Below, piece by piece: positions 1 to 22,596 of a stretch of DNA of 64,000 nt (position 1 is its first letter; every line of letters starts with the position of its first letter). The DNA lies in the IMG/VR virus record IMGVR_UViG_3300033144_005150, one strand, 5' to 3'. This DNA is from an uncultured virus (IMG/VR IMGVR_UViG_3300033144_005150) (lineage: Duplodnaviria; Heunggongvirae; Uroviricota; Caudoviricetes). The translations under genes were made by a program, and so were the position numbers. The notes under the pieces are model-generated. The model did not search any database. It was not told the DNA's origin and was given only the letters and a program-made list of their open reading frames with translations.

Positions 1-426
1 GGTGGTGGTTTTCTTGGGTGCCGCCTTCTTGCGAGCGGTCGTTTTCTTCGCGGCTTTCTTCGCGGTCGTCTTCTTGGGGGCTGCCTTCTTGGGGGCTGCC
101 TTCTTGGGGGCTGCCTTCTTGCGAGACGTGGTTTTCTTGGCTGCCTTCTTCGCCGTCTTTTTCGGCGCAGCCTTCTTGCGAGCCGTCGTCTTCTTGGCGG
201 ATTTTTTCGCCTTGGGCTTCGCGGTTGCTTTCTTCTTCGGTGTGGTCTTGGCCACCTTGGTCTTGTTCACCTTCTTGCGGGCCGTGGTCTTCTTCGCCGT
301 CTTCTTGGCCTTGGGCTTGGCTTTCGCTTTTGCCTTCGTGCTCGAAGAGATCTTCTTGACGCGAGGGGTGGTGGCCTTCTTGGCCTTGGATTTCGCCTTC
401 GCTTTGGTCTTTGTAGCTGTCGTCAT
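1..426 (-). CDS. Histone H1-like Lys/Ala/Thr-rich DNA-binding protein (runs off the window edge)
   Basis: ATG at 426 with GGAG upstream; reads MTTATKTKAKAKSKAKKATTPRVKK... with KKAAPKK/KKTTARKK repeats. Absent from the ORF track because no stop is in the window; the 2..517 + ORF is its antisense shadow. Confidence 0.85.
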   Translation of the reverse strand, partial: MTTATKTKAKAKSKAKKATTPRVKKISSSTKAKAKAKPKAKKTAKKTTARKKVNKTKVAKTTPKKKATAKPKAKKSAKKTTARKKAAPKKTAKKAAKKTTSRKKAAPKKAAPKKAAPKKTTAKKAAKKTTARKKAAPKKTTT

Positions 427-557
427 GTGTTTCTCCATCTGTCCGTCTGAGAGGGAGCGGCAGTGCCGCATCGTGAAAATAGTACCCGCAGAAAATCAAA
501 TCGTCTCAACGGTATGATGAGGTCAGCCATGTGTTCCTCCTTTGCAGGAGAGGACGT

Positions 558-599
558 GCCCCCTTCGGATAAGTAGTGCCATCCGGAGGGGGCTTTTTT
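558..599 (+). terminator. Intrinsic terminator-like hairpin
   Basis: GCCCCCTTCGGAT-loop-ATCCGGAGGGGGC followed by T6. Confidence 0.7.
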
Positions 600-683
600 G
601 TAGTGCTTCCACCGCTGTCCAGATCGCGTAGTATGAGGACGCGGGTTCGTACAACACGGACCCATCACACGGAGACACAACAC

Positions 684-1217
684 ATGACCGACAGTAAAAA
701 AGCATCCCAGCTTCCGGGCGATGAGCCTGAAACCACTGAGACTCAAGAAACGGTGGCCACCCTCGTGGAACGCAAGACTCCAGCACCCACCCGAATCAAA
801 GGCAACAGCGTGGTTCGTGACTCGTTGCGCAGGGCACGACAAAAAGCAGAAGAGGACTCCGAGAGCAGCGTCCAGGAGTACACCCTCGTCCGGGACGACA
901 ACCGTCCTCTCCGGTTCAACGGCATCCTGGTCGGCTACAACGAAGTGAACATCGAAGAGGATCCTCGTGGGACCCAGGTCCAGATCTTCGTCACAGGCTC
1001 ACGGAAGATCATCACCGCGGTTTACCAGTGGCAGCGCAAAGAAGGGCTCGAGCGTGAACGGCACAAAGCCAAAGTTCACGAAAACCCGGAGGCGGCTGTG
1101 GAGTTCCTCGAAGAGGACGGTGGTGGAAAGCTCGGTCGGGCTTCACGGGAAGCCTGGGACATGGCCTGCCAGGTCGAACCCTCTCTCAAGGGTCACGACG
1201 TGGAAGTGATCGACTAG
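684..1217 (+). CDS. Hypothetical protein
   Basis: ATG at 684 after GGAGA; codon style matches neighbouring genes. Confidence 0.7.
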   Translation: MTDSKKASQLPGDEPETTETQETVATLVERKTPAPTRIKGNSVVRDSLRRARQKAEEDSESSVQEYTLVRDDNRPLRFNGILVGYNEVNIEEDPRGTQVQIFVTGSRKIITAVYQWQRKEGLERERHKAKVHENPEAAVEFLEEDGGGKLGRASREAWDMACQVEPSLKGHDVEVID

Positions 1218-1259
1218 GATCTCGGTGTCTTCTCTATCGGTCTCCGTAAGGTAAGACCG

Positions 1260-1571
1260 ATGGCGAAACCTATCCCGATCCCGCAGCTTCTTCTTTTCAC
1301 GCTGCCCGCAGTTTTGACGACTGTGATCTTGGCCCTGACCCCTCTTGGGTGGGACCTCCACACGCAGCTTGAAAATTCACGAGCCGAAGTCTTCGAGCTT
1401 CGTGAAGTTCTGCACACACAAGTGACCTGCACTCCGGTGCAAGTCACTTGTGTGTGTCCCGAGTACGACCAAGGCTGGGACGATGCCGAGTTTGCCGAAG
1501 GGATCGCCATCGAAGACCTCGAACTGATCTGCGCCGAGCTCAACGAGTTCGGGTACCTCCCTCGCTGCTGA
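1260..1571 (+). CDS. Hypothetical protein with N-terminal membrane/signal segment
   Basis: Hydrophobic LLLFTLPAVLTTVILAL segment, then an acidic Cys-containing C-terminus. Confidence 0.6.
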   Translation: MAKPIPIPQLLLFTLPAVLTTVILALTPLGWDLHTQLENSRAEVFELREVLHTQVTCTPVQVTCVCPEYDQGWDDAEFAEGIAIEDLELICAELNEFGYLPRC

Positions 1572-1576
1572 CCTCT

Positions 1577-1686
1577 GCGCTGGGCGTGTGGTACGCGCAG
1601 AGGAACTCGAAGCGGTAACGTTAGAGCGGGGATCTGCTTTGCCCCGGCCATTCTCTCTGTTCCAGGTTCGACTCCTGGCTGGTGCG
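1577..1686 (+). ncRNA. tRNA-like RNA with anticodon loop replaced by a two-hairpin junction
   Basis: Acceptor GCGCTGG/CTGGTGC, D-like GCGT/ACGC, stem CAGAG/CTCTG, T arm CCAGG-TTCGACT-CCTGG; about 50-nt structured insert; T run follows. Confidence 0.6.
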
Positions 1687-1730
1687 CTTTTTCTAAACTC
1701 AGGTCTTCGTCAGAAAAATGAAGAATTCGT

Positions 1731-1759
1731 TTGACTTCGCGTCTGAGCCCCGGTAAGCC
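1731..1759 (+). promoter_or_regulatory. Sigma70-like promoter upstream of leader peptide 1 and the tRNA array
   Basis: TTGACT-N17-TAAGCC; the TTGACTTC motif recurs at 8920 and 41074-41081(-). Confidence 0.55.
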
Positions 1760-1780
1760 TTTTGAACTGAGGTAGTCACC

Positions 1781-1927
1781 ATGACCAACGTCCAGAACAT
1801 CAACTGTCGAGTCTTCCAGTCCGTCGCCGCAGATCCTTCTGCAGCCGCCGCGGCAGGATCGTGCTCCGGTTCGTGCTCAGGATGGCGAGGTATGGAGCCC
1901 AGTAGTTACGTCTCCAGACGTGTCTAG
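1781..1927 (+). CDS. Putative leader peptide 1 (48 aa) for the tRNA array
   Basis: GAGGT SD then ATG; MTNVQNINCRVFQSVAADPSAAAAAGSCSGSCSGWRGMEPSSYVSRRV*; run of 18 Ser/Ala/Gly/Cys/Trp/Arg codons. Confidence 0.65.
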   Translation: MTNVQNINCRVFQSVAADPSAAAAAGSCSGSCSGWRGMEPSSYVSRRV

Positions 1928-1966
1928 TCCCCTTCGGGTGTACTAGACAACCCCGGAGGGCTCTAC

Positions 1967-2041
1967 GCCCCCGAGGCCGACTGGAGAGGCAAGAGACTTC
2001 TAATCTCGAGGTGGCAGGTTCGATTCCTGTCGGGGGTGCCA
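1967..2041 (+). tRNA. tRNA-Arg(TCT)
   Basis: Cloverleaf, anticodon loop CT-TCT-AA, encoded CCA. Confidence 0.9.
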
Positions 2042-2088
2042 AAGTCTACAACTACTGGGCGAGACCGAAGACAACGGCTCGCCAATTT

Positions 2089-2179
2089 GGAGTCGTGTCC
2101 GAGCGGTCTATGGTGCTCGGTTGCTAACCGAGTGTGGGTTCATAGCTCACCCAGGGTTCGAATCCCTGCGACTCCGCCA
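2089..2179 (+). tRNA. tRNA-Ser(GCT)
   Basis: Long variable arm, CTCGG-TT-GCT-AA-CCGAG, GCCA end. Confidence 0.95.
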
Positions 2180-2187
2180 AACAACAT

Positions 2188-2275
2188 GGAACCGTGTCCG
2201 AGAGGCTTATGGTGCTCGCTTGGAAAGCGAGTGTGGGTAAAACCACCGAAGGTTCGAATCCTTTCGGTTCCGCCA
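2188..2275 (+). tRNA. tRNA-Ser(GGA)
   Basis: Long variable arm, CTCGC-TT-GGA-AA-GCGAG, GCCA end. Confidence 0.95.
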
Positions 2276-2278
2276 AAT

Positions 2279-2369
2279 GGAAGGCCAAGCAGATGGCTGG
2301 CGACTGCACCTGGTTTGAACCCAGACGAAGTGAAAGCTCTTTGGGGTTCGATCCCCCAGCCTTCCGCCA
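2279..2369 (+). tRNA. tRNA-Ser(TGA), atypical D arm
   Basis: Acceptor GGAAGGC/GCCTTCC, loop TT-TGA-AC, long variable arm, GCCA end. Confidence 0.85.
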
Positions 2370-2419
2370 ACAACTTTTCACCCAGGAGACTCAACAAGAA
2401 CGACGACGAACAACAACTT

Positions 2420-2509
2420 GGAAGATTGGCCGAGTCTGGCTTAAGGCACCTGTTTCGAAAACAGACGTGGGTAAAACCACCAGGGGTTCGAATCCCTTAT
2501 CTTCCACCA
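2420..2509 (+). tRNA. tRNA-Ser(CGA)
   Basis: Loop TT-CGA-AA, long variable arm, ACCA end. Confidence 0.9.
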
Positions 2510-2510
2510 T

Positions 2511-2585
2511 GCGGATGTAGCTCAGGGGTAGAGCGCAACCTTGCCAAGGTTGAAGTCGTGAGTTCGAATCTCATTATCCGCTCCA
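2511..2585 (+). tRNA. tRNA-Gly(GCC)
   Basis: Canonical cloverleaf, TCCA end. Confidence 0.95.
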
Positions 2586-2587
2586 AT

Positions 2588-2663
2588 GCGTGTGTAGCTC
2601 AGTCGGTAGAGCGCTAGCTTCCCAAGCTCGAGGCCGCGAGTTCGATTCTCGCCACATGCTCCA
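2588..2663 (+). tRNA. tRNA-Gly(CCC)
   Basis: Loop TT-CCC-AA, TCCA end. Confidence 0.92.
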
Positions 2664-2678
2664 AAAAGGAACGAAACC

Positions 2679-2960
2679 ATGATCACCATCACCAAAATGA
2701 TCGAGACTTGCGGCGGCTGCCCCTCTCAATGGGACGGCTGGGATGAGGGTGGTGCGTACTTCTACTTCCGCTTCCGACACGGCTACCTCCGGGTAGATGC
2801 TCATGATCCCGATGGCCGGCCCTACACGATCCTCGGCAAAGAAGTCGGCGACAGCATGGACGGCATCATGGGCTACGAAGCCCTCAAGTTTCACCTCGAA
2901 GGCGTCCTGGAACTCCCAGACACCGAATCCCTTCCCGACCAGGACGAGCAAGCATCATGA
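2679..2960 (+). CDS. Hypothetical phage protein (CxxCPSQW...YFRFRHG)
   Basis: AAGGA SD; ATGA overlap with the next ORF. Confidence 0.7.
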   Translation: MITITKMIETCGGCPSQWDGWDEGGAYFYFRFRHGYLRVDAHDPDGRPYTILGKEVGDSMDGIMGYEALKFHLEGVLELPDTESLPDQDEQAS

Positions 2961-3166
2961 GCAAGAAAACCATCACCACCTGGGCCCAGTGCAAGTTTCA
3001 GCGTCTCGACACGGATGCCCACATCGAGACGGTAGCCAACATCGACGCGACACACGCCAAGGTGGGACGGCGCATGACTTTCAAGGGCGTCGAAGGGATC
3101 TGGCAAATCAAACAAGCGGGGCAACCCCGCGAACGTCCCAACTTCGGTTGGGGAGGGATGGACTAA
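2957..3166 (+). CDS. Hypothetical protein
   Basis: Start coupled to the preceding stop. Confidence 0.6.
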   Translation: MSKKTITTWAQCKFQRLDTDAHIETVANIDATHAKVGRRMTFKGVEGIWQIKQAGQPRERPNFGWGGMD

Positions 3167-3220
3167 ACCAATGGGGGCAAGAAACTAAGCAAGAACTTCG
3201 AGAAAGTCCGCTCGGTCGGG

Positions 3221-3598
3221 GTGACGCCCGAAGGCAAACAAGTCATCGGGGGAATTTTCCCCATGGTGAGCTCCGAGGGAATCCTCCTCGAAATCATCGT
3301 CCAGGAAATAGACTCCAAGAACTACGTCGTTGACTGGTTCGGGTTCTGGACAGACTCCGTGGAAAACGGTTGGAACCCGCGATCCACACGAACCAAGATT
3401 CTCAATTGCATAGGAGAGCAGTTCGGACCCGTGGTCCGAGAGCAACACGAGAAGCTGCTCGATCTCCTCTACAAAATCGAGATGACCAAGAAGGATGAAG
3501 ACGATTCCAAGATGAGAGAGCTGCTGCTCGAACACCGAAAACTGGAGCAGAAGGAACAGCGAAAACGATTTCTCAACACACTACACAAGCGTGCGTAA
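3221..3598 (+). CDS. Hypothetical protein
   Basis: ORF track; start uncertain; stop lies inside tRNA-Gly(TCC). Confidence 0.5.
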   Translation: MTPEGKQVIGGIFPMVSSEGILLEIIVQEIDSKNYVVDWFGFWTDSVENGWNPRSTRTKILNCIGEQFGPVVREQHEKLLDLLYKIEMTKKDEDDSKMRELLLEHRKLEQKEQRKRFLNTLHKRA

Positions 3599-3665
3599 CT
3601 CAGTGGTTTAGAGTGTCTGCCTTCCAAGCAGAGGGTCGAGGGTTCGAATCCCTCCGCGCGCTCCA
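3589..3665 (+). tRNA. tRNA-Gly(TCC)
   Basis: TCTGC-CT-TCC-AA-GCAGA, TCCA end. Confidence 0.93.
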
Positions 3666-3666
3666 T

Positions 3667-3819
3667 GTTTTCGTAGTTCAATGCCAGAACAGCCGGATAA
3701 CGCCTCCTTCGCGGAGGGGTGCTCGGGCGGAACAGGGCCGGTCATATCCGCGGATAAAATGACCGGTCACTACCGCTGCAAACGAGTGGCAAATGCGGGT
3801 TGGATTCCCGCCGAGAACA
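3667..3819 (+). ncRNA. tRNA-like RNA with an approximately 95-nt structured domain in place of the anticodon loop
   Basis: Acceptor GTTTTCG/CGAGAAC, D arm GTTC/GAAC, stem GCC/GGC, T arm GCGGG-TTGGATT-CCCGC; insert has nested helices. Confidence 0.65.
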
Positions 3820-3825
3820 ACTTTA

Positions 3826-3905
3826 GGGGTACGGGACTGCAAGGGGTGGTCGCTTGATTTGCACTCAGGAAATACAGCAGGGTTCGATTCCCTGGTACTC
3901 CACCA
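3826..3905 (+). tRNA. tRNA-Ala(TGC), atypical
   Basis: G3:U70 pair, loop TT-TGC-AC, ACCA end; non-standard D and variable regions. Confidence 0.8.
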
Positions 3906-3928
3906 AAACGAAACGAAACGAAACGAAC

Positions 3929-4213
3929 ATGGCCAAAGCAATCGAAATCGACGGGGTCCTCTACCGGAAGCGGAGAGGGAAACTCGTGAAGATCCCTGAC
4001 GAGTGGGTGGGCAAAACTGTGGGTCGTCATGCCAAAAGCAAACGGCACTCCAAGACGAAGGCCAAGCGCATCTACACCGGCATCAACCGAGCGAAAGAGC
4101 ACGACCAGCTCCGACACGACGAAGATCCAAACCCGGCCGAGTCCAAACAGTTCGGTCGCTGGCACTACTGCTCGGGTCGCACCGACCAGTACCGAGACAA
4201 GCACAAGTCATGA
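3929..4213 (+). CDS. Small basic hypothetical protein
   Basis: MAKAIEIDGVLYRKRRGK...; preceded by (AAACG)n spacer. Confidence 0.6.
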   Translation: MAKAIEIDGVLYRKRRGKLVKIPDEWVGKTVGRHAKSKRHSKTKAKRIYTGINRAKEHDQLRHDEDPNPAESKQFGRWHYCSGRTDQYRDKHKS

Positions 4214-4404
4214 GTCAGAAGATCAACTACCGTCGAGATGCGAAGCGCCATCAGGACAACGGACCCACCTACGAAGGTGGCCCTCCGAACTCCGGCTGCA
4301 ACTCGACACACGTCGCCCGATCTCGTCGGGGCTGGCGGAACATCCGGCGTCGAAAGGAACGGCGCCAAGAGCAACAAGAGATCAAGCAGCAAATGGGACA
4401 TTAG
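4210..4404 (+). CDS. Small Arg-rich hypothetical protein
   Basis: MSQKINYRRDAKRH...; ATGA overlap; stop inside tRNA-Ala. Confidence 0.55.
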   Translation: MSQKINYRRDAKRHQDNGPTYEGGPPNSGCNSTHVARSRRGWRNIRRRKERRQEQQEIKQQMGH

Positions 4405-4470
4405 CTCAGTTGGGAGAGCGCCTGCCTTGCAAGCAGGAAGTCGTCGGTTCGATTCCGACATGTTCCACCA
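4395..4470 (+). tRNA. tRNA-Ala(TGC)
   Basis: Canonical cloverleaf, G3:U70, ACCA end. Confidence 0.95.
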
Positions 4471-4594
4471 GCCATGTACGAGAACGAAAACGAAGTATGG
4501 CTTAGCCTCGATTGGGGGGCGCTCGGACGCCTCGGGGTCTATGTAGATCCTTGGCCGATGGGAGCCATCCCACCAAACGACGGAAGATACGAAG

Positions 4595-4969
4595 ATGGAA
4601 ATTTCACGAACACAACTAATCGATCACCTGGGCAGCATGACTGTCATGGAGATGTGCGACCTGACCCGAGACCTTGAGGAGACCTGGGGAGTCTCGGCAA
4701 CGCCGCAGATCACCCAGACCACGGGAGCTCCGACAGGGGAGCCCGCTCCTGAGCAGACCGAGTTCGACGTGATCCTCGAAAGTTTCGGGGAGAAGAAGAT
4801 CCCCGTCATCAAGACGCTCCGTGCGGAGATGCCGGGACTCGGTCTCAAGGAGGCCAAGTTCCTGGTGGAACAAGCACCTGCACCGATCAAGGAAGATGTC
4901 TCAAAGGAAGAGGCTGAAAATCTCAAGGCCGAGCTCGAGAAGGCGGGCGCGACGGTCACGATCAAGTAA
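4595..4969 (+). CDS. rplL: 50S ribosomal protein L7/L12 (bL12), full length
   Basis: N-domain ...[22 protein letters not shown]-domain EQTEFDVIL...KIPVIK...GLGLKEAK...[11 protein letters not shown]. Confidence 0.95.
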
Positions 4970-5001
4970 CGTACAAGCCCCCGATCTTCGCGGGGGCACA
5001 T

Positions 5002-5077
5002 GGGGTGGTAGCTCAGATGGGAGAGCATCGCACTGGCAGTGCGAAGGTCAAGGGTTCGATCCCCTTTCACTCCACCA
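5002..5077 (+). tRNA. tRNA-Ala(GGC)
   Basis: TCGCA-CT-GGC-AG-TGCGA, G3:U70, ACCA end. Confidence 0.95.
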
Positions 5078-5225
5078 GTTTTTTCACTCGCCACAGGAAT
5101 GGTCTTGTGGCATCATGGGTCCTGAGAGAGACCAGCAAATCACTCTCACGGGTCTGAAGCCCGGTAAGAGCCGCAGCCATTTCGGAGCGGTACGGGTAGG
5201 CGAAAGCCAAGGAGAGAGACGCAAG

Positions 5226-5291
5226 ATGGAACACATTCAAGTAAACAAGAACTTCTGGTGTAGCTGGTATCCCACGGGGGAAACCGGGTAA
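5226..5291 (+). CDS. Putative Trp/Cys attenuator leader peptide (21 aa)
   Basis: AAGGAGAG upstream; MEHIQVNKNFWCSWYPTGETG*; TGG-TGT-AGC-TGG at 5256-5267. Confidence 0.75.
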   Translation: MEHIQVNKNFWCSWYPTGETG

Positions 5292-5315
5292 GCACAGCCG
5301 CATCTTGCGCTGTAA

Positions 5316-5345
5316 GCCGCCCGGTCTCTGGACCCGGCGGCTTTT
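5316..5345 (+). terminator. Attenuator terminator upstream of tRNA-Trp/Cys/Trp and trpS
   Basis: GCCGCCCGGTC-TCTG-GACCCGGCGGC-TTTT; its 5' arm can alternatively pair with ACCGGGT at 5283-5289. Confidence 0.75.
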
Positions 5346-5353
5346 CTCGTTCT

Positions 5354-5428
5354 GGGGTATTAGCTCAGCTTGGTAGAGCGGTGGTCTCCAAAACCGCGAC
5401 AGCGGGGGTTCAAATCCCTCATGCCCTA
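5354..5428 (+). tRNA. tRNA-Trp(CCA), G1:U72/A73, no encoded CCA
   Basis: GTGGT-CT-CCA-AA-ACCGC anticodon arm. Confidence 0.85.
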
Positions 5429-5434
5429 CAACAT

Positions 5435-5510
5435 GGCTCGATGGCCGAGTGGCTTTAGGCACCGGATTGCAACCCCGGTTAGATCAGTTCGATTCTGATT
5501 CGAGCCTCCA
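5435..5510 (+). tRNA. tRNA-Cys(GCA)
   Basis: Loop TT-GCA-AC, U73, CCA end. Confidence 0.92.
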
Positions 5511-5523
5511 ATTTCAACTTCAT

Positions 5524-5594
5524 AGGTCGCGGTCTGGGACCGGGCGAGACTCCAAATTTTGCCTAGCAGGGTTCGATCCCCTGGTGGCCTGCCA
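5524..5594 (+). tRNA. tRNA-Trp(CCA), short with miniature D arm
   Basis: A1:U72, G73-CCA, GGTC-TGG-GACC D arm, loop CT-CCA-AA. Confidence 0.75.
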
Positions 5595-5615
5595 ACCAAC
5601 GAAAGGACGGACAAC

Positions 5616-6602
5616 ATGAATCGAATACTGACTGGGATCCAGCCCTCGGGAGAGCTGCATCTTGGGAACTACTTCGGGGCCGTGCAGCCCTGTCTTCGAC
5701 ACCAGGAAAATCCGTCTTCGGATCTCTTGATGTTCATCGCGGACTACCACGCTCTGACGACCGTGCATGACGGGGTCCTTCTTTCAAGGAACTCGCTCAA
5801 CTTGGCCGAGGGCCTCCTCGCTCTGGGAATCGATCCCGAGCAGACGATCCTCTTCCAGCAGTCAGATGTCGAGTACGTCGCCGAGCTGACCCTGTTGCTC
5901 ACGATGGTCACGGGGATGGGCACCCTCCAGCGGTCTCCGTCCTACAAGGACAAGGTTGCCAAGGGGATTACCCCGAGCGTCGGGTTGTTCATCTACCCGA
6001 TGATCATGGCGGCCGACATCCTGCTCTACCAGAGCGACATCGTTCCGGTCGGCAAGGACCAGACCGCGCATGTCAAGATGGCTCGACAGATAGGCACGCA
6101 CTTCAACGAGACGTTCGGCCCCGTGTTCAACCTCCCCAAAGCCGTCCTCTCCGAAGTCCCTAAAGTGCCCGGTCTCGACGGGGAGAAGATGAGCAAGAGC
6201 TACGGCAACACCATCTCCGTGTTCGATCGCGGAAACACCCTGCGGGCCAAACTCGCCGGCATCAAAACCACCTCAACCCCTTTCGGAGAACCACTTCCCA
6301 TTGACGACTGCCATCTTTTCGAGCTGATCAAGCTCATGTGCTCCACCAGCGCCGAGCTCGAGGAAGTCACCCAGTTTTTCCGGACAGGCCGACGTGGCTC
6401 CCAGAAGTTCGGATACGGCCACGCCAAGGAGCTGCTGGCCGAAAAGATCGAAACCACTTTCGCCGAAGCGAATGAGCGCCGGCAGGATTTTCTCCCCCAT
6501 CGCATCGAGGTCATAGGAGCCCTGAGTCAGGGCGCGACCAAAGCACGGAGGATCGCAAAGGAAACCCTCGACAAGTGCCGATCCCTCTGTGGCATCGGCT
6601 AA
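5616..6602 (+). CDS. trpS: Tryptophanyl-tRNA synthetase
   Basis: TGIQPSGELHLGNY, YPMIMAADILL, VPVGKDQ, KMSKS motifs. Confidence 0.95.
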   Translation: MNRILTGIQPSGELHLGNYFGAVQPCLRHQENPSSDLLMFIADYHALTTVHDGVLLSRNSLNLAEGLLALGIDPEQTILFQQSDVEYVAELTLLLTMVTGMGTLQRSPSYKDKVAKGITPSVGLFIYPMIMAADILLYQSDIVPVGKDQTAHVKMARQIGTHFNETFGPVFNLPKAVLSEVPKVPGLDGEKMSKSYGNTISVFDRGNTLRAKLAGIKTTSTPFGEPLPIDDCHLFELIKLMCSTSAELEEVTQFFRTGRRGSQKFGYGHAKELLAEKIETTFAEANERRQDFLPHRIEVIGALSQGATKARRIAKETLDKCRSLCGIG

Positions 6603-6659
6603 ACACCCACCCTCAACCAAGGAGACTGTTTCAACGAAACACCGAGTAAAAACCATACC

Positions 6660-7253
6660 GTGATACGGATTGTTGGACCCAGGGACAGCCATTACGACCG
6701 CCACAACTGCACGGTGATCAACACCACCAGCAGGGCCTCGGCCCGTGACGCATGGTCTCGAGGGCTCAGCCCCTTCCACATCGGCCCTGTGCAGCTCTAC
6801 GAGGGAGCGGCAGCCGAGACCTCCCACAACGTCGAGAATGCCTGGCAGTACGCCAAGGTGTACCCGGTCCACGTTGACAAAGAGGAGAACCCAACCCAGG
6901 CGTACTTCGACTGGGCTCGGGAAGGCTGGAGAACTCGGAGAGCGATTCGCTACCCGATGGGGAAAGGTGCCGTCCCCCTCTACTCGTGGTGGGCTGGTGA
7001 AAAGCTGAGCTACGTGGACGCCCGGAAGAAGATCTACGTGCCGCTCTACACGAAGGCCGTGATCGATACGAAGGCGTTCGCAAAACTCCGTGAACTTCAT
7101 CAAACGCTGGACGAGATCTGGCTCTGGGACTTCGACGGGTACGACCACGTCGAGCTCGGGATGACGCTCAAGGAGGTCCTCAACGATCCGGCCAGGAAGA
7201 TGGGCCACGCATTCGTGCTGGCCATGATCCTGGAAGCGATGGACAAACGGTAG
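6660..7253 (+). CDS. DUF6939-like protein
   Basis: INTTSR...LSPF...NVENAWQYAKVY...ARKKIYVPLY pattern, recognised from memory. Confidence 0.55.
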   Translation: MIRIVGPRDSHYDRHNCTVINTTSRASARDAWSRGLSPFHIGPVQLYEGAAAETSHNVENAWQYAKVYPVHVDKEENPTQAYFDWAREGWRTRRAIRYPMGKGAVPLYSWWAGEKLSYVDARKKIYVPLYTKAVIDTKAFAKLRELHQTLDEIWLWDFDGYDHVELGMTLKEVLNDPARKMGHAFVLAMILEAMDKR

Positions 7254-12346: not shown

Positions 12347-12584
12347 GGACTTCGTCAGTTTCGGCCGCCCATGTACTTGACGCAGTAGTCCATGAACTCC
12401 GGAGGGTCCATGCGCTCGAACTCATCGCAGCGTGGTTCTTGGTGAAAACACGCACGTATCCATCGCGCTCGATCCACTTACCTTCCCATGCCTTAAGTCC
12501 GCATGGGCAACTGAACTCGGTCACATTGACGAGTTTGATGTCCCCGAGGCCCTCCACGGTGACGGTGGTTTCGGTTTCCGTCAT
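12321..12584 (-). CDS. Hypothetical protein
   Basis: GGAG-preceded ATG overlapping the ARH stop; MTETETTVTVEG... Confidence 0.55.
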   Translation of the reverse strand: MTETETTVTVEGLGDIKLVNVTEFSCPCGLKAWEGKWIERDGYVRVFTKNHAAMSSSAWTLRSSWTTASSTWAAETDEVRAPDRSSD

Positions 12585-13765
12585 GACTCCTCCGAGGTCC
12601 GGCTTGCCTCCCAAGCTGCCAGTCGTTCGGCGTACTGGCTTTCCACGATGCCGTGCATGGTCTCGGTCAGCTCGCCCAAACCTTCCCAGGTCCACTGCTC
12701 GGCCTTGATGTCGTGGACGACGGGGGCGACGTGTTCGAGCACCTCTTTCGGGAACTTCTCGACCCCGATGTTGGCCCCCACGATGGTCGCAGCCATGGCC
12801 GCGATGGTGTCGGAGTCTCCTCCCACGGCGATGGCGGTCGTGATGGCCTTCCACACGTCCGTAGGAGCCGCCATGACGCAGTAGAAAGCCCACAGCGTCG
12901 AGCTGCGCGCCCAGGGGCTCACGCCCTCCCAGGAGGCGTCGTCGCCTTCCAGGACGAAGTCACGGGCCGCTGCGAACTCGTCGTCTCCGGCCTTCCACTT
13001 GACCGTCTTGCGACCGTCCCAAACGATCTTGGTCAGATCACGGATGTCCTGGGCGAATTCCTCGTGGTTCGTCTGGACGTGGGCCGCCAGCCAGTTCCAC
13101 CAACCGGGCTCGTGCGGGCCCGTGGTGCTCTCACTGGCGGTCAGCGCCATCGCGGTCGCCACGGCCATACCCACTCCAGCCGCGACGGATATCGGAGCCT
13201 TGTGCGTGATGATGGCTTGTTCGGCTGCAGCTTTCACGCAGGTCGGAACGTCGTGGTAGTAGAACATGCCGATCGGGCCAGCTCGCATGGCGGCTCCGTT
13301 GCCGGCTCGAGGGGGCGGAGTTCCGGCCTCGTCCCAGGGCACACCGTCGAGCAGACGGATGGCCGCTTGTTGGGTGGCTCCTCCGTATCCCACGATGGCG
13401 TCCTGAGCGAAGAGTTTGGCCACGCGATCGGCGAAGTCCTGGGGCACGAACTCGTTCTCATCGATCAGGGAGATCATGAGCTCCCGGCTGAGTTGCGTGT
13501 CGTCGGTGTACTGGCCGAAGCGCATCCCGTGGTGGTGTGTCCCGATGCTGTCGAAGTCGAACTCACCGAGGGTGGCTGCGAAGTCACGGGCCTCTGAGGC
13601 AGGGCGACGTTCGGCCCAGGCGCCCACGGAGTCTCCGAGCGCACAGCCAAGGAGGGCACCTTGGTAGCGGCTCAGGGAGGCTGGAGCGACGGGAGGGATG
13701 GCGTCTGGATCGGGTCCGATGGTGCGGACTTCGTTAGCCGGGGTGTGGATGCTTCGTACGTTCAT
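12581..13765 (-). CDS. ADP-ribosylglycohydrolase (DraG/ARH family)
   Basis: GALLGCALGD, YTDDTQ, GNGAAMR, GDSDT. Confidence 0.92.
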   Translation of the reverse strand: MNVRSIHTPANEVRTIGPDPDAIPPVAPASLSRYQGALLGCALGDSVGAWAERRPASEARDFAATLGEFDFDSIGTHHHGMRFGQYTDDTQLSRELMISLIDENEFVPQDFADRVAKLFAQDAIVGYGGATQQAAIRLLDGVPWDEAGTPPPRAGNGAAMRAGPIGMFYYHDVPTCVKAAAEQAIITHKAPISVAAGVGMAVATAMALTASESTTGPHEPGWWNWLAAHVQTNHEEFAQDIRDLTKIVWDGRKTVKWKAGDDEFAAARDFVLEGDDASWEGVSPWARSSTLWAFYCVMAAPTDVWKAITTAIAVGGDSDTIAAMAATIVGANIGVEKFPKEVLEHVAPVVHDIKAEQWTWEGLGELTETMHGIVESQYAERLAAWEASRTSEES

Positions 13766-14024
13766 GTCTGTTTCGTTTCGTGGCTTCGTCAATGCAATGT
13801 TGACGAAACTCGGGGTCACTGTGGTAGCGGTCGTGCTTGCGGTTTCGTTCGGTTTCCCGAATTTGATCGCCGTTCTTTTCCTTGTACTTGGCCTGCCGCA
13901 CCGAAGCCTCGAACCGGTTGCATTCGAGACAGATGTTGCGAGGGCGACGGGTGCCCTTCGCGTCCTTGTAGAACGCGAAGGTTTCGTCGGGTCCTTCGTG
14001 GGGGCAGTGCAAGCATTTTCTCAT
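13734..14024 (-). CDS. Small zinc-finger protein
   Basis: CLHC...CLEC followed by a basic helix; ATGA overlap with the nrtR stop. Confidence 0.6.
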   Translation of the reverse strand: MRKCLHCPHEGPDETFAFYKDAKGTRRPRNICLECNRFEASVRQAKYKEKNGDQIRETERNRKHDRYHSDPEFRQHCIDEATKRNRHERTKHPHPG

Positions 14025-14731
14025 TCGGGAAACTTGTGGAGTCGGGCGGGGCGGCCGGCTCCGGTCGTCTCTTCGAGATCCTCAGTTTCCAGGATCCGGC
14101 CATCTTCCACCATACGCTTGAAGCGCTTGTTGAAGTTGGACGAATCGTACGTCGTGCCCTTGCAGATTTCGTGGACCCGGCGGAACTGGGTGATCGTGAA
14201 TTCACTCGGCAGCAGGGCTCGGGCGAGGCGTGGGTCGTAGTCCACTTTGCCCCGAACGCGCTCGATTGCCGTCTTCATGATCAGGTCGTGGTCGAACGCC
14301 ATCTCAGGCAAATCTTCCACGTCGTACCACGCAGCTTCGACGGCATCGTCGCCGGCCTCGACACGGTGATACGCCTCGGGGGAGATCAGCGCGTAGTAGG
14401 CGACGGTGAAGACGCGGCCACGGGGGTCGCGCCCAGGGTTGCCGAAAGTGTAGAGCTGCTCGAGGAACACCTGATCGCGTTCGCGCTGGAGGTTGGTCTC
14501 CTCCAACAGTTCACGCTCAGCAGCCTCTTCCAGGGTTTCACCTTGGTTGCCACGGGGCTTGTGGCCGACGCCGACTTCGACGAAACCGCCGGGGATGGCC
14601 CAGCTTCCCTTGTGGGGATCGTCGCGTCGTTGGATCAGGAGAACCTTGAGGGCTCCTTTGCGGATCGTGAAGATCGCCATGTCCACGGTGACAGCAGGCA
14701 GGGGGTAATCGTACTCGTGCTTCTTGCTCAT
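14021..14731 (-). CDS. nrtR: NrtR-type regulator (Nudix domain plus winged helix)
   Basis: PAVTVD, PGGFV...RELLEET, EQLYTFGNPGRDPR, FDH, C-terminal NFNK...GRPA. Confidence 0.88.
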   Translation of the reverse strand: MSKKHEYDYPLPAVTVDMAIFTIRKGALKVLLIQRRDDPHKGSWAIPGGFVEVGVGHKPRGNQGETLEEAAERELLEETNLQRERDQVFLEQLYTFGNPGRDPRGRVFTVAYYALISPEAYHRVEAGDDAVEAAWYDVEDLPEMAFDHDLIMKTAIERVRGKVDYDPRLARALLPSEFTITQFRRVHEICKGTTYDSSNFNKRFKRMVEDGRILETEDLEETTGAGRPARLHKFPE

Positions 14732-15297
14732 GATGCTTTCTCGGTCTTCTGGTAGAGGTCGTGGATCTCGATGTAGCGGGCAACCTTGGGGCACACCAGA
14801 TCTTTCCAGGTAGCGTCCCCGGTTCGGACCTTCTCTCGAATCTGCGTGGAGTGGGTGCCCATGTTCGGAGCCTCGAAGAATCCGAACTCATCGCGGATCT
14901 CCTGCACGCCTTCCCACTGATCGAGTTCTTCGATGATGTCGGGGCCGATGACGAAACGGAACTCGCCTTCGCCTTCGTCCATCGCCTCGCACACTTTCGC
15001 CAGGAAGCGCAAAACCTTGATGGTGAAAAGAGGTGCCTTGATTCCCTCTTGGAGCATCTGACGTTCGATCGGGAGCACCTCGACAGGGATGGCCCATTCG
15101 CCGCTCCAGACCGCGAGTTCGGCCATGTTGAGCCGATGCTCGAAAGGGAACTGCTCCTTCTTGAGAGGGTGCGCCACCGAAGGGATGACGAAGATTTCGT
15201 CGAACTCGCCGGAGGCCCCGATGTGCCGAAGCACGTCACGGTGTTGATTGCCGAAGGGGCTGAAACTGCCCCCGTAAACTGCGATGCGTCGGTTCAT
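14728..15297 (-). CDS. nadD: Nicotinate-nucleotide adenylyltransferase (NadD-like)
   Basis: IAVYGGSFSP...H, HPLKK, R.NM..LA, FVIGPD...LDQW, HSTQIR. Confidence 0.85.
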   Translation of the reverse strand: MNRRIAVYGGSFSPFGNQHRDVLRHIGASGEFDEIFVIPSVAHPLKKEQFPFEHRLNMAELAVWSGEWAIPVEVLPIERQMLQEGIKAPLFTIKVLRFLAKVCEAMDEGEGEFRFVIGPDIIEELDQWEGVQEIRDEFGFFEAPNMGTHSTQIREKVRTGDATWKDLVCPKVARYIEIHDLYQKTEKAS

Positions 15298-15299
15298 GG

Positions 15300-15515
15300 T
15301 CAGTACCCCGGTTCTTTGTAGTTGTCCCAGTTGGTGCTCAGCGTCGCACCTTCGGGGAGCAGGAGTTGAACGGCCTTGTGGGTCTTGGCCTCGAGTTCGC
15401 TGTTCCGTTTGGTGAGCTCTTCGCATCGCTGCTCCGAGGCGGCCAACTTCCGTCTGGTGTCGGCCAGCTCCATTTCAGTGGTGCGCAGCTTTCGGCGTGT
15501 CTCGTCGATGTTCAT
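15300..15515 (-). CDS. Small coiled-coil protein
   Basis: Coupled ORF within the operon. Confidence 0.55.
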   Translation of the reverse strand: MNIDETRRKLRTTEMELADTRRKLAASEQRCEELTKRNSELEAKTHKAVQLLLPEGATLSTNWDNYKEPGY

Positions 15516-17203
15516 TTCATCTTCATCCTGTAGAGCTTGTTGCCCCGGAAGAACTGGAGCTGGCCCTGGTTTTTCACGAGCCGCATGTCACCACCGAGCA
15601 CCGGGTCCTCGATGGTCTTGACCGAGGTTGAGCCCTTGCGGGACGAGAAGAGCTCGATCTGCTCGTCTTCGTTGAGGCAGACGCACACGCCCGAGTCGAG
15701 CGTCACGAAGTTCAGGCCGGTCGCGGTCACGTCCTCGACCTTGCGCACGTCGTAGCTGGCGTAGTCCTTGTCGAAGCGAAACACGAAGCGGTGGTACTTG
15801 CCCTTCTCGGCCGCGACCACCATGAGCACACCGCTGTCGAACTTGGCTTCGACGATCTTGTACCCCTTGAGTTCGGACACGTTGAACTGGTAGCAGGCGC
15901 CGGGACGCGGGAACAGACTGACGTGGGGCTCTCCCAGAAGGCTCTGGATGGCGACCCCTTCGTAGAGCCGGCAGGCGTTCTCCAACACGTTGGCTGCGAG
16001 CCGAGCGCCCGCGACCGTCTTGTTTCCCGCCTGGGTGAACGTGAGTTCGAGAATCTGATCTCCGTTGCGGATGTAGATCGTCTCGCCCGTGGACATCATC
16101 TCGTCTGCGTTGAGCGTCAGATCGAGAGGCTGCTGCGTGGTGACGTTGACGGGTGTCACCGTGTTCGAGTTGGGTGCCGGGAACACCACGATGGGATGCC
16201 CGTGTTGCGGCGTGAACCCGATGGTCGGTGCGCCTTTCCAGACGCCGACCTTGCGTTTGTCCAGGTAGAGATCGGTGCCCGCGTGGACGACCATGTGGCC
16301 CCCACCGACGAACACGGCTCGGATCTCGTTCTGGAACTCGTGGAGTTCGGTGATGTCGAAATTGTTGGTGCCGCTGATTTGACGAAACACCGGACGGATC
16401 GTGATGACACCGTGGAGCCCGGTAGGTGGCTCGACGCGTTTGCCGTCCACGAACATGGCTTGAAACCAATCGCGGTAGATGTCTGGAATCACGTCGAACG
16501 GGTAAGCCACTTTGGGCACCCTGACACTCGAATCGAACACGGAGACGTTGGCTCCCATGCGCGCCTCGAATCCCTTGAGGGTCGGGTGCTTGCCCTTGAA
16601 CGGGTGGATGCCGACGAGCAGTTGGAAGCTGACGATGCCGAACGAGTACCAGTCCGACAGGGACGTGAAATCGACGCCCTGGACGAGTGGGTCCTGAACG
16701 GAAGGCATGATAGCCGTCGCGGGGTAGCGGGCCGTCTGGTAGCTGTCCACGTCGATGAAGTACGGGGTCGAGAAATCCTTGCTCACCAGGAAGTTCATCT
16801 CGTTGAGATCCACAATGAGGACCCCGGCCTTGTGGACGGCCTCGACGCCTTCCTGGAGCTTCCGTACGAGCTTGATGGCCATGTCGTGGGTGAAACCCTC
16901 CCGCTCACGGAACGCCCGTGGGAAGAGCTGACAGAGTGTCCAGGCGTCCTTCACGAAGCGGAAGGTGTGGCCGACGTGCTGTCCCTTCTGGCCCTTGTAG
17001 AGCGCGTCCTGGGGCCTGATGACGTTGGGGTCGGAGATGCCCGACAACTCCTGGATCTTGCCCACGGGGATGGCCCGTTTGGGATCGTGAAAAATCTTGT
17101 AGCCGGTCTGACCACGAGCGTAGACCTTCCCCTCACCACCTTCGGCGACGAAGTGGGTCTTGGTCAGGTTGACCTCTGGCTGCCCTTTGATGAAGACCTT
17201 CAT
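15512..17203 (-). CDS. Ser/Thr protein kinase (TerY-P/YegI-like)
   Basis: EGGEGKVY, KIF, IVDLNEMNFLV, IDVDSYQ, GIHPFKG. Confidence 0.88.
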   Translation of the reverse strand: MKVFIKGQPEVNLTKTHFVAEGGEGKVYARGQTGYKIFHDPKRAIPVGKIQELSGISDPNVIRPQDALYKGQKGQHVGHTFRFVKDAWTLCQLFPRAFREREGFTHDMAIKLVRKLQEGVEAVHKAGVLIVDLNEMNFLVSKDFSTPYFIDVDSYQTARYPATAIMPSVQDPLVQGVDFTSLSDWYSFGIVSFQLLVGIHPFKGKHPTLKGFEARMGANVSVFDSSVRVPKVAYPFDVIPDIYRDWFQAMFVDGKRVEPPTGLHGVITIRPVFRQISGTNNFDITELHEFQNEIRAVFVGGGHMVVHAGTDLYLDKRKVGVWKGAPTIGFTPQHGHPIVVFPAPNSNTVTPVNVTTQQPLDLTLNADEMMSTGETIYIRNGDQILELTFTQAGNKTVAGARLAANVLENACRLYEGVAIQSLLGEPHVSLFPRPGACYQFNVSELKGYKIVEAKFDSGVLMVVAAEKGKYHRFVFRFDKDYASYDVRKVEDVTATGLNFVTLDSGVCVCLNEDEQIELFSSRKGSTSVKTIEDPVLGGDMRLVKNQGQLQFFRGNKLYRMKMK

Positions 17204-17439
17204 GGGGTCACCTGGGTGCAGGTTGCGGGTTCGTGGGGTGCGTACCAGTCTCCACTAGGGGTTCGTTCCGGAGCCGGCTCGGGGGTGCCAGCGCCCGGAG
17301 AAACCTGCCGAACTTTGCAGACAGAACATACGGCGAAGGGTTGGCCTGCCGTATGTTGGACCCACTGATGCGGACCCGTGTAAGGGTTTGGATCCGGGTT
17401 CCCCGAAGTGAAAACCTGGATATTTCCTCCGCTAGACAT
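17200..17439 (-). CDS. Small hypothetical protein (CxxC)
   Basis: Fills the gap between phosphatase and kinase with overlapping ends. Confidence 0.5.
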   Translation of the reverse strand: MSSGGNIQVFTSGNPDPNPYTGPHQWVQHTAGQPFAVCSVCKVRQVSPGAGTPEPAPERTPSGDWYAPHEPATCTQVTP

Positions 17440-18307
17440 TGGGGTCCTCCATCCAGATGGCGGCGGCTGAGAAATCGTCGTAGTGCTGCCAGTTGTGGGT
17501 GACGCAGTGACGGGTGAGGAACTTGTGGCACCGGCGCTTGAGGAACTCGCCTTTGGTGCCTTTGATCTTGAGAAGATGACGGACTACCTCTTCCATTGGG
17601 ATGTCCACAAGGTTACGGCTCGTGCCGTCCTCGACCATCTGTTGGAACGTCTGGACACCGTCGGACAGCACCATTACGAGATCGTAAGTCTCGGCGTCGA
17701 AGAACCAGTCATCGGGGTGACCGTTAAATTCGGCGTAAAGGCTCGGCTCCCATCCGTCCTTGGGGCGGTCGTGACCGAACTTGGAGGCGTACGTTCGGAC
17801 AGCGCTCTTGTCCCCGAACTTTTTCATGTAGCCTTCGAGACGTTTTGAATCCAGATCGTAATTCAAATACTGGGGGGCGTTGTGTTCGTGGTCGATGGTG
17901 AAAATGAAAAAATCACCGTCTCGCATCCGAGCAACAACAACGCCGTCGCCACGCATCGAAACCTGGACGCCTTCCTTGCCGTCCTTCTCGACTCGGTACG
18001 CAGCAACGACGGTGGCATCCAGAGCCCGATTACCGACCTTGGCAGCGGACAAGGCCATGTAGGCGTAGTTCGCTGCGGTATTCATCACGCGGTCCGCGGA
18101 GTACCTCCCAGTGCAGAGATCCTCGATTTGGAATGCCAGGGAGGTCGCCAAGGCACGAGCCCCGATGTCGGTGTCTGGAGACGAGGAGCAACCGTCACAG
18201 ACGATCGCGTACGGGTGACGGTCGTCGGTGAACCCCGCACGAGCGTAGTCCTCACAGACCATGTGGCTCTTCCCAATGGAGAAGAAAGCATCGGCGTTCC
18301 ACCCCAT
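17432..18307 (-). CDS. PP2C-like phosphatase (YegK-like)
   Basis: GKSH..CEDY, VCDGCSS, LSDG, DDFS. Confidence 0.88.
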   Translation of the reverse strand: MGWNADAFFSIGKSHMVCEDYARAGFTDDRHPYAIVCDGCSSSPDTDIGARALATSLAFQIEDLCTGRYSADRVMNTAANYAYMALSAAKVGNRALDATVVAAYRVEKDGKEGVQVSMRGDGVVVARMRDGDFFIFTIDHEHNAPQYLNYDLDSKRLEGYMKKFGDKSAVRTYASKFGHDRPKDGWEPSLYAEFNGHPDDWFFDAETYDLVMVLSDGVQTFQQMVEDGTSRNLVDIPMEEVVRHLLKIKGTKGEFLKRRCHKFLTRHCVTHNWQHYDDFSAAAIWMEDPNV

Positions 18308-18759
18308 TAGAGCACCCCCAGTTTCTGGAGACGCTCGGCGTTCTCCCGTCCGTAGGGACCTTCGAGGAGTTTGTAGATCGGCCCCCATTCGACGGGTGCC
18401 TCGTGCTCTGCGACCTTGAACGTCTCTGGGAGATCCATGCCGGTCGTATCGAGCAGGTAGAACGTGGTGAAGTAGCCACCCGAATCGAACAGTGTGCCCT
18501 GGGTGATGAGCCGTGTTGTGGGCACCGGGTAAAGCCCGTCGCGACGTGTTGACTGCTTGAGATCGATACCTGTCTCTTCAAGGAGCTCCCGGCAAGCTGC
18601 GAGGGGACTGCTCTCTCCAGGATCGACCTTTCCTCCGGGGAGGCTCCACTTGGTGTTGTCGTCCTTGCGGGCGACGAGCACGGCTTCCCACTTCCCCTCC
18701 ACGTCGGAGTTTTGACGAAGGACGATGATGGCGACGGCGAATCTGGCTGGAGTGATCAT
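18307..18759 (-). CDS. Nudix hydrolase
   Basis: Nudix box PGGKVDPGE...ACRELLEETG. Confidence 0.9.
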   Translation of the reverse strand: MITPARFAVAIIVLRQNSDVEGKWEAVLVARKDDNTKWSLPGGKVDPGESSPLAACRELLEETGIDLKQSTRRDGLYPVPTTRLITQGTLFDSGGYFTTFYLLDTTGMDLPETFKVAEHEAPVEWGPIYKLLEGPYGRENAERLQKLGVL

Positions 18760-19010
18760 GGTTTAGGTGGGTCGGTGAATTGGTCGAAGAGTTTCTGCGC
18801 CAGGGCCTTGAGCCCCTTGGCAGCGTCGATGGCGTGCTGTGCGGTTTTCGTTCCCCGCCACCATGCCGCGATCTTGTTGGTGTCTCGATCTTGGTAGACG
18901 ACGCAGAGGTACTCGATTTTGCCGCTCGTCGCCTTGTCCAGAAGGCCCACCAAAAGAGCAACGGTCTGCTCCTTGGAGGTGTCCTTCACGTCGGTGGGGA
19001 TTCCAGCCAC
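18756..19010 (-). CDS. Hypothetical protein
   Basis: Coupled ORF with GGAG SD. Confidence 0.55.
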   Translation of the reverse strand: MAGIPTDVKDTSKEQTVALLVGLLDKATSGKIEYLCVVYQDRDTNKIAAWWRGTKTAQHAIDAAKGLKALAQKLFDQFTDPPKP

Positions 19011-19017
19011 AAGGCTC

Positions 19018-19758: not shown

Positions 19759-19814
19759 GATTTTCTCGTTTCTGTATTCGTGTTTCTGTGTTCGTGTGAA
19801 TGAGGATGTCCAGC

Positions 19815-20633: not shown

Positions 20634-20644
20634 GGGGTCTTCTC

Positions 20645-21496: not shown

Positions 21497-21522
21497 GGTG
21501 TATTCTCCCCGTAGGAAGAATA

Positions 21523-22593: not shown

Positions 22594-22596
22594 CGT

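Follow-up and report, generated by a model that had tools for sequence, protein, structure and literature searches.

The tRNA arrays of phages are usually treated as cargo that is passively co-transcribed, yet other bacterial and phage operons begin with leaders that respond to translation or act as RNA. The attenuators of enterobacteria can use multivalent leader peptides, as in thr (Thr and Ile) and ilvGMEDA (Ile, Leu and Val), and the promoter-proximal RNAs of processive antitermination, such as HK022 put and Bacillus EAR, carry no open reading frame (ORF). Here we analyze the head of a tRNA array in a 64-kb stretch of DNA from an uncultured virus (IMG/VR record IMGVR_UViG_3300033144_005150; the window, to which positions refer unless a relative is named). 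A 48-codon ORF with a Shine-Dalgarno (SD) sequence lies there between a promoter-like motif and the first of 14 tRNA genes, largely within a 138-nt RNA hairpin (Table 1). Judged by sequence comparison, this element is a real and conserved leader of the tRNA operon; the description is based on the cassette, its conservation, its covarying hairpin and its codon content.

Like the enterobacterial attenuators, the locus has a short ORF with a ribosome-binding site right after the promoter and upstream of the genes that would be regulated, and within strong RNA structure it has densely packed codons for a particular group of amino acids, although this cluster was recognized post hoc and is partly of low complexity. 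It differs from them in that tRNAs and not biosynthetic enzymes would be regulated, in its greater length of 48 codons, in an ORF that spans one long hairpin instead of regions 1 and 2 of a four-region switch, and in having neither an intrinsic terminator nor a conserved terminator/antiterminator pair. With put and EAR it shares a conserved structured RNA directly after the promoter of a long operon, but it contains an ORF and shows no match to them in sequence or in Rfam.

The mycobacterial upstream ORF (uORF) of whiB7 has an Ala-enriched composition that decides which shortages are sensed, is activated by inhibition of tRNAs and tRNA synthetases, and drifts in sequence while its composition is kept (PMC10274678). 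A terminator lies downstream of the whiB7 uORF, which has no counterpart here, and the product of whiB7 is a transcription factor (PMC10274678). By analogy, our leader would work most like the multivalent leader peptides and this composition-dependent uORF, although the terminator found in both is missing. The T4 tRNA cluster is transcribed from a promoter just upstream into an RNA of ~1.75 kb that holds eight tRNAs together with two stable RNAs, species I and II, and the ORF segB, whose translation initiation region the authors presumed to be occluded by RNA structure (PMC2330249). Both clusters combine tRNAs with a structured non-tRNA RNA and a structure-masked ORF; they differ in that they are unrelated in sequence, that the stable RNAs of T4 are distal and not at the cluster head, and that segB is a homing endonuclease gene and not a 48-codon leader (PMC2330249). 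A full-text literature search of a limited library, which does not prove absence, found no published leader-peptide control of tRNA genes.

Conservation of the leader open reading frame

A preliminary description of this DNA had reported a 48-aa ORF with an SD sequence between a promoter and the first tRNA, and both the ORF and its GAGG-N8-ATG start were confirmed. With the adjacent tryptophanyl-type tRNA synthetase (TrpRS) as query, a scan of metagenome contigs yielded 126 relatives; 80 were retained, and 11 of these were scanned for tRNAs; five (L001–L005) contain tRNAs and six (L007–L012) do not. Three relatives (L002, L005 and L006) end short of the leader, and the leader comparison is therefore made of the window with L003 and L004, which have TrpRS proteins 80% identical to that of the window and carry the whole leader, and partially with L001, in which TrpRS is 100% identical and the contig begins at leader codon 3. 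The gene order of the tRNA array is the same in L001, L003 and L004. A further 21-kb contig (X3) has an identical leader ORF, and contigs from X2 and X7 cover the leader only in part.

The ORF, the SD and the ATG are kept in every relative that reaches the leader (whole in L003 and L004, from codon 3 in L001). The ORF has 48 codons in the window, where its TAG stop occupies 1925–1927, 49 in L003 and 48 in L004, and that of L001 also ends at codon 48; 30 of the 48 residues are invariant. All indels inside the ORF are multiples of three (+3 in L003 and in the low-depth contig X5, and a net −3 at the apex in X5), and an indel of +1 is found just after the stop in X5. An AGA codon, which accounts for 3% of Arg codons in the long ORFs of the window, occurs in frame within the last three codons in 4 of 4 haplotypes despite their differing C-termini. 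Genes of the window that start with ATG have a similar GGAG or GAGG at about the same distance, and the initial ATGACC of the leader ORF recurs in four of them. Codon usage over codons 1–19 is gene-like, with a score D of +7.7 in the window and +9.3 in L003; the value of the window was reached by none of the off-frame gene windows and by 5% of the antisense windows.

The alternative of a gene read in a different frame or from the opposite strand was rejected: the other plus-strand frames have stops or lack a start, and the minus-strand ORF at 1800–2042 overlaps tRNA-Arg. Searches for the leader beyond the contigs described above gave negative results. The peptide had one candidate and none at E ≤ 1 in a collection of 5.8 billion proteins, and no tblastn match in 50 697 phage records. 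In viral contigs, exact and degenerate leader DNA patterns had no matches, peptide alignment yielded 51 pattern matches with no relatives among them, and the TrpRS protein search found none. Peptide alignment in genome contigs gave 99 pattern matches and four tblastn hits, all of the latter in bacterial genomes or metagenome-assembled genomes; none of the four has tRNAs nearby, and they were rejected as low-complexity chance matches.

A covarying hairpin around the ribosome-binding site

The same minimum-free-energy topology was found for the hairpin in three lineages (dG −48.9, −54.5 and −63.6 kcal/mol; z −0.97, −2.32 and −5.07), and in all three the plus strand folds better than the minus strand. 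Its alignment holds 54 pairs, with 92.0% of cells paired compared to 28.4–41.5% for slid partners. Both sides have changed in three of the pairs, a number reached in 22 of 500 column shuffles, and variable columns make up 22 of 108 paired and 12 of 34 unpaired positions. Helix 1 pairs GAG (1769–1771), three of the four SD bases, with AGCCCAGU, and the CCAUG of the start site pairs with the UAUGG of codons 37–38. The long, mostly double-stranded stem kept by covariation is what is expected of a processing hairpin of the RNase III type or of a stable leader RNA in phage tRNA precursors. The hairpin has no match in Rfam, and an nhmmer search of the window and L001–L006 for more copies of it or of the tRNA-like element described below returned the known copies only.

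These features suggest how translation could control the operon. The promoter-like motif would start the transcript at ~1766, which would place the base of the hairpin at the 5′ end of the RNA. The SD and the AUG would emerge first, and a ribosome could load only before the 3′ arm (1838–1903) is transcribed, as helices 1 and 2 would then close the site by pairing GAG and CCAUG with their partners. A loaded ribosome would hold the hairpin open, read 16–18 codons that are decoded by the tRNAs of the array itself, and stop 15–40 nt before tRNA-Arg; refolding of the leader beside that tRNA would depend on the dwell time of the ribosome in the 3′ arm. Intrinsic termination would not be the readout, which may instead be Rho or the access of RNase P or RNase III. 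Both translation of the ORF and any effect on tRNA output are proposed here from sequence, and we consider translation-coupled control of the operon by the leader, specific sensing of the tRNA pool included, a possibility that falls somewhat short of even chances. If true, a structure-masked leader ORF on each sub-array would allow the phage to tie tRNA production to the state of translation, and the tie may extend to the very codons that those tRNAs read, which would be relevant to how large phages handle codon mismatch and the tRNA-cleaving defenses of their hosts.

Alternatively, and with lower probability in our estimate, selection may act on the 5′-terminal hairpin as an RNA, the ORF being an untranslated by-product. 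Released by RNase P cleavage at tRNA-Arg, the hairpin could serve as a 5′ stabilizer, as an RNase III site, as a stable small RNA similar to those that accompany the T4 tRNAs on their transcript, or as an antitermination RNA close to the promoter of a long structured operon. The pairing, the shared fold, the strand preference and the lower variability of paired columns described above all favor this explanation, and a number of further observations weigh against translational control. The codon run discussed below is the 3′ arm of the hairpin, a hairpin whose changes are compensatory at the RNA level; the apex changes from ADPS to ATSV are nonsynonymous yet keep the base pairs exactly. Variable columns are spread over the three codon positions as 10:9:10, without periodicity of substitution, and the 5′ arm with the apex loop (8:6:4) has no third-position excess, the ratio in the 3′ arm being 2:3:6. 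The N-terminal codon score of L004 (D = −0.8) is not gene-like, and the codon usage of the run (D = −8.6, reached by 0.03% of in-frame gene windows) resembles that of off-frame or antisense sequence. By blastn, homology between the group of the window and L003 and that of L001 and L004 ends at 1904, the 3′ end of the hairpin, so that the conserved unit is the motif with the hairpin and not the ORF as such. Conservation of the ORF holds for the frame, the SD and the ATG but not for the last seven codons, which lie outside this unit. Conservation of the SD and the AUG also needs no translation, because both are inside helices. All of these comparisons draw on a sample of three full haplotypes and one partial haplotype.

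A purely structural RNA would nevertheless leave several features unaccounted for. By a rough estimate that was not computed, the chance of GAGG-N8-ATG opening a frame through the whole hairpin in every haplotype is ~3%. The frame is preserved by the indels, two of three lineages have gene-like codon usage at the N-terminus, and the period-3 G/C patterning of both arms is unexpected for an RNA of this kind. The codon run and the Glu/Asn enrichment of a second leader (see below) would remain as two separate coincidences. Even if only the RNA is functional, the 138-nt covarying hairpin, the promoter-like motif specific to tRNA sub-arrays and the adjacent tRNA-like RNA would be new, all three being absent from Rfam.

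Codons for the tRNAs of the array

The preliminary description had stated that codons 20–37 (SAAAAAGSCSGSCSGWRG) are limited to Ser, Ala, Gly, Cys, Trp and Arg, that the 14 tRNAs serve exactly these six amino acids, and that the ORF uses TCT, TCC, TCA, TCG, AGT and AGA. The first and third statements were borne out by the sequence, and the second agrees with ARAGORN for all of the tRNAs and with Rfam for 11 of the 14. All six types of Ser codon are used except AGC. The anticodons of the array read 19 codons, which do not include CGN, and the run is 16 rather than 18 codons long at the codon level because R36 is CGA, which tRNA-Arg(UCU) does not read. This 16-codon run is the longest array-readable run in all six frames of the 64 kb, the next being 15 and 11 codons. 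In terms of amino acids the run is kept at 17–18 codons across the lineages, with 17 unbroken codons in L004, where codon 20 is GTT (Val), and 21 codons in X5 by hand inference from variants.

In the 47 long ORFs of the window the six amino acids make up 32.6% of residues, and their longest run is eight. The six-frame translation of the window contains three runs of at least 18 (23, 20 and 18), and the 380 six-frame small ORFs (35–80 aa) have a mean content of 46%, with 38 of them reaching the 58% of the leader; among these 380, a run of at least 18 is found in the leader ORF only. The nominal p of ~1e-3 for the leader run is a post hoc statistic inflated by low complexity, as the run includes five consecutive GCN codons and a tandem duplication of 12 nt. 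The earlier claim that the run is unlikely by chance stands in that no longer array-readable run exists in the window, but the estimate of (23/61)^18 on which it was based is far too optimistic for this DNA.

As a null model, perfect hairpins were built from real coding 5′ arms in three registers, with 30 000 hairpins per register. Their 3′ arms consisted of 32–54% Ser, Ala, Gly, Cys, Trp and Arg, and runs of at least 12 appeared in 0–0.2% of them (~1% for arms with a third-position GC content of at least 0.85). The maximum was 14, and hairpin complementarity alone was ruled out as the source of the run, with 0 of 30 000 per register reaching 15 or more.

The codon content raises the idea that the leader is a multivalent sensor of the tRNA pool, in which the speed of the ribosome on Ser, Ala, Gly, Cys, Trp and Arg codons would report the corresponding charged tRNAs and adjust the output of the array, with a matched leader for each sub-array. 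This is a subset of translation-coupled control, and we regard it as unlikely. In its favor, the ORF is conserved, the run is maintained in all lineages and is the longest of its kind in the window, and five of the six Ser codon types are used together with the rare AGA. The same run speaks against it in other respects: one of its codons, CGA, is not decoded by the Arg tRNA of the array, its low-complexity origin leaves fewer independent codons, and its statistic is not only post hoc but was picked by a reader that scanned very many windows. If the leader does act as a sensor, it would form a feedback loop from decoding to tRNA supply that operates without an intrinsic terminator.

A second leader in a related contig

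A second sub-array, with three Glu and three Asn tRNAs, is located 4.8 kb upstream in L003, and its leader follows the same promoter-like motif as that of the main array. The leader folds strongly (dG −82.9, z −5.0), and its 3′ end, a long hairpin followed by UUUUCU, directly abuts tRNA-Glu; alternative pairings are offered by CCCCGCGCGG, CCUGCGCGGGG and CCCCGCGCAGG. Its dominance by strong hairpins is shared with the leader of the window and would also be expected if only the RNA were functional. The sole ATG ORF of this leader has 30 codons, a weak SD, and five Glu and two Asn codons. Among 374 six-frame small ORFs of the window, two have a Glu plus Asn content of at least 7 in 30, as does 1 of 121 small ORFs of L003, where the count necessarily includes the leader ORF itself, and the binomial p against gene composition (10.7%) is 0.036.

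The two leaders are cross-specific for their own tRNA sets. Glu and Asn account for 7 of 30 codons in the Glu/Asn leader compared to 4 of 48 in the Arg leader, and the six amino acids of the main array for 28 of 48 in the Arg leader compared to 11 of 30 in the Glu/Asn leader. The enrichment points in the direction predicted if leaders match the tRNAs that follow them, as the preliminary description had proposed, but it comes from a single sequence with a weak SD, and its Glu codons alternate with CGA and CGU codons for Arg. In its general form, the proposal would be that every tRNA sub-array of this lineage is its own operon, with the same promoter motif and a short translated ORF in the codons of its own tRNAs, and that ribosome dwell time sets tRNA output or maturation; this seems rather improbable to us.

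Downstream pairings and the lack of a terminator

The stop codon had been described as lying in a hairpin formed by TGTCTAGT and ACTAGACA, and TGGAGCCC as able to pair with GGGCTCTA just before tRNA-Arg. Both pairings are present in the window and L003. Two pairs of the stop-codon hairpin are changed on both sides between the two, the TGGAGCCC/GGGCTCTA pairing is part of the minimum-free-energy fold of the whole leader of the window, and L003 retains it through wobble pairs. Both are missing in L001 and L004, in which the segment is replaced and the stop is 15 nt before tRNA-Arg. Similarly, UAUGGAGCCC can pair with either the SD/AUG region or GGGCUCUAC beside tRNA-Arg, and the latter partner is absent in L001 and L004.

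No terminator-like site was found in 1781–1967, and the lack of a U tract after the stop hairpin, already stated in the preliminary description, was confirmed; the tails of L003, L004 and L001 are likewise without either. A classical leader-peptide attenuator is excluded for the leader of the window because no version has a terminator-like site or a U tract. The missing terminator and the unconserved downstream switch speak against a multivalent sensor, and by our reasoning we could derive no homeostatic logic from the A:B and B:C pairings of the Glu/Asn leader; the part of that proposal that survives is a conserved ORF whose codons match the array, together with the second leader and the motif at both sub-array heads.

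The last codons of the ORF at 1906–1920, TCTCCAG among them, have 80% complementarity over a length of 15 nt to the region of the D-arm of tRNA-Arg at 1978–1992, and because of this complementarity the leader could interfere competitively with the folding of that first tRNA. A sharp mosaic junction lies at the 3′ end of the hairpin (window 1904, L001 118): the first 118 nt of L001 match the window with 100% identity and are followed by an L004-type tail and a different tRNA-Arg(tct); further on, L001 carries additional DNA of ~0.75 kb and ~0.6 kb between Ser tRNAs.

Other explanations of the reading frame

A small trans-acting protein or peptide precursor that is merely co-transcribed with the tRNAs, for example a modified peptide rich in Gly, Ser and Cys like microcin B17, is improbable: the core GS[CS]SGSCSGWRGME is (nearly) invariant as protein, with third-position changes (TCG/TCA, TGC/TGT and TCA/TCG/TCT) and other small ORFs also lie between the tRNAs of the array, but hairpin pairing explains the conserved core equally well, the C-terminus is exchangeable, and no homolog was found in the protein collection, phage records or viral contigs searched. 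A cluster for ribosomally synthesized and modified peptides was rejected, as a Pfam scan of 50 ORFs of the window detected neither a cyclodehydratase nor a lanthipeptide or radical-SAM enzyme, and the only candidate is a sub-threshold C39-like peptidase 36 kb away. The probability that remains beside the explanations given here goes to a relic or to chance.

Promoter-like motif and an adjacent tRNA-like RNA

The promoter-like motif is kept in L003 and L004, and its spacer in the window holds GCGTCTGAGCCC (1739–1750). The regular expression TTGAC.{3,5}G[CT]GT[CT][AT]GAGCC has four matches in total when both strands of the window and L001–L006 are searched, and each of the four immediately precedes a tRNA sub-array, that for Glu/Asn in L003 among them. 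The letters and positions given for the promoter in the preliminary description are correct, but a sigma-70 consensus scan of 1–7000 called no promoter, the −10 hexamer being poor. In viral contigs the motif was found at 11 loci, nine without tRNAs and two with the motif ~800 nt past the end of an array. These were judged unrelated as none is at the head of a tRNA array.

Between the stop of the upstream gene (1571) and the motif is a conserved tRNA-like RNA of ~112 nt (window 1578–1690, plus strand; L003 5258–5370; L004 3052–3165). An acceptor-like stem of 7 bp and a D-like stem of 4 bp are present, the T arm has the loop TTCGACT, and the version in L004 ends with a 3′ ACCA; a branched middle domain of ~60 nt takes the place of the anticodon arm. 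The structure has 38 pairs, six of them with compensatory changes, which back the branched middle domain. The element at 1578–1690 has no Rfam match and no standard ARAGORN call, and a tRNA with an intron was rejected, as this was supported only by three mutually inconsistent ARAGORN calls obtained with introns allowed and a lowered threshold.

Gene content of the window

The positions of the leader elements and of the genes next to them are listed in Table 1.

Table 1. Features of the leader and tRNA array in the window, and the second leader in L003
Feature	Position	Strand	Basis or detail
Promoter-like motif	1731–1759	+	TTGACT 1731–1736, 17-nt spacer, TAAGCC 1754–1759
Long imperfect RNA hairpin, 138 nt	1766–1903	+	Fold and covariation; encloses SD, AUG and codons 1–41
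Shine-Dalgarno-like GAGG	1769–1772	+	Sequence, conserved; 8 nt before ATG 1781
48-codon leader ORF (MTNVQNINCR...GWRGME...)	1781–1927	+	ORF translation, relatives
18-codon Ser/Ala/Gly/Cys/Trp/Arg run (codons 20–37)	1838–1891	+	Most of hairpin 3′ arm
Codon-level run S20–W35	1838–1885	+	16 codons readable by array
12-nt tandem duplication	1856–1879	+	GGATCGTGCTCC / GGTTCGTGCTCA, encodes GSCS GSCS
In-frame AGA codon	1916–1918	+	Sequence; read by first downstream tRNA
Stop-codon hairpin	1921–1949	+	TGTCTAGT (1921–1928) / ACTAGACA (1942–1949)
GGGCTCTA, directly 5′ of tRNA-Arg	1958–1965	+	Alternative partner of TGGAGCCC (1893–1900)
tRNA array, 14 genes and interspersed ORFs	1967–5594	+	ARAGORN, Rfam
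Ribosomal protein L7/L12 gene, inside tRNA array	4595–4969		Pfam
Class I Trp/Tyr-type tRNA synthetase (TrpRS), directly after array	5559–6602		Pfam
Glu/Asn sub-array leader	L003 86–301		Same promoter-like motif

The anticodons assigned by ARAGORN are Arg-tct, Ser-gct/gga/tga/cga, Gly-gcc/ccc/tcc, Ala-tgc (two genes) and Ala-ggc, Trp (two genes) and Cys. Eleven of the 14 tRNAs pass the gathering score of Rfam. Among the three others, the tRNA at 2279–2369 matched the tRNA-Sec model alone and below threshold, that at 3826–3905, Ala(tgc), scored 22.3 bits against a threshold of 29, and the second Trp(cca) at 5524–5594 had no Rfam match at E ≤ 1. Genes for tRNAs are clustered by amino acid and further by column of the codon table (window 1967–5594; L003 302–815 and 5629–10030). 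The array of the window serves every NGN amino acid (Cys, Trp, Arg-AGA, Ser-AGY and Gly) plus TCN and GCN, and the upstream sub-array of L003 reads the NAN codons GAR and AAY.

The gene content of the window, which has a GC content of 56–62%, suggests a large phage; this assignment is a qualified one because no capsid or terminase gene lies within the 64 kb. No close relative was found among the 50 697 phage records, and a blastn search of 1200–6700 against phages matched 766 records, none with at least 80% coverage and the best, at 5%, by tRNA similarity only. Other genes of the window include ribonucleotide reductase, NAD-salvage genes and a few with PHROG hits. The stretch 1–520 is repetitive, with Gly-Ala-Ala-Phe-Leu-like repeats in one frame, and is probably a tandem repeat because L003 3688–3889 matches it at several offsets. 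A RecD2-like helicase gene (53041–56715) and recA (59758–62439) are each split by an intein with a LAGLIDADG domain. On the minus strand, 12581–24081 holds an NAD/ADP-ribose cluster with an ADP-ribosylglycohydrolase, a Nudix protein with an NrtR-like domain, a cytidylyltransferase-like protein, an NAD synthase and a nicotinamide phosphoribosyltransferase-like protein, and a protein kinase and a PP2C phosphatase are encoded within the same stretch.

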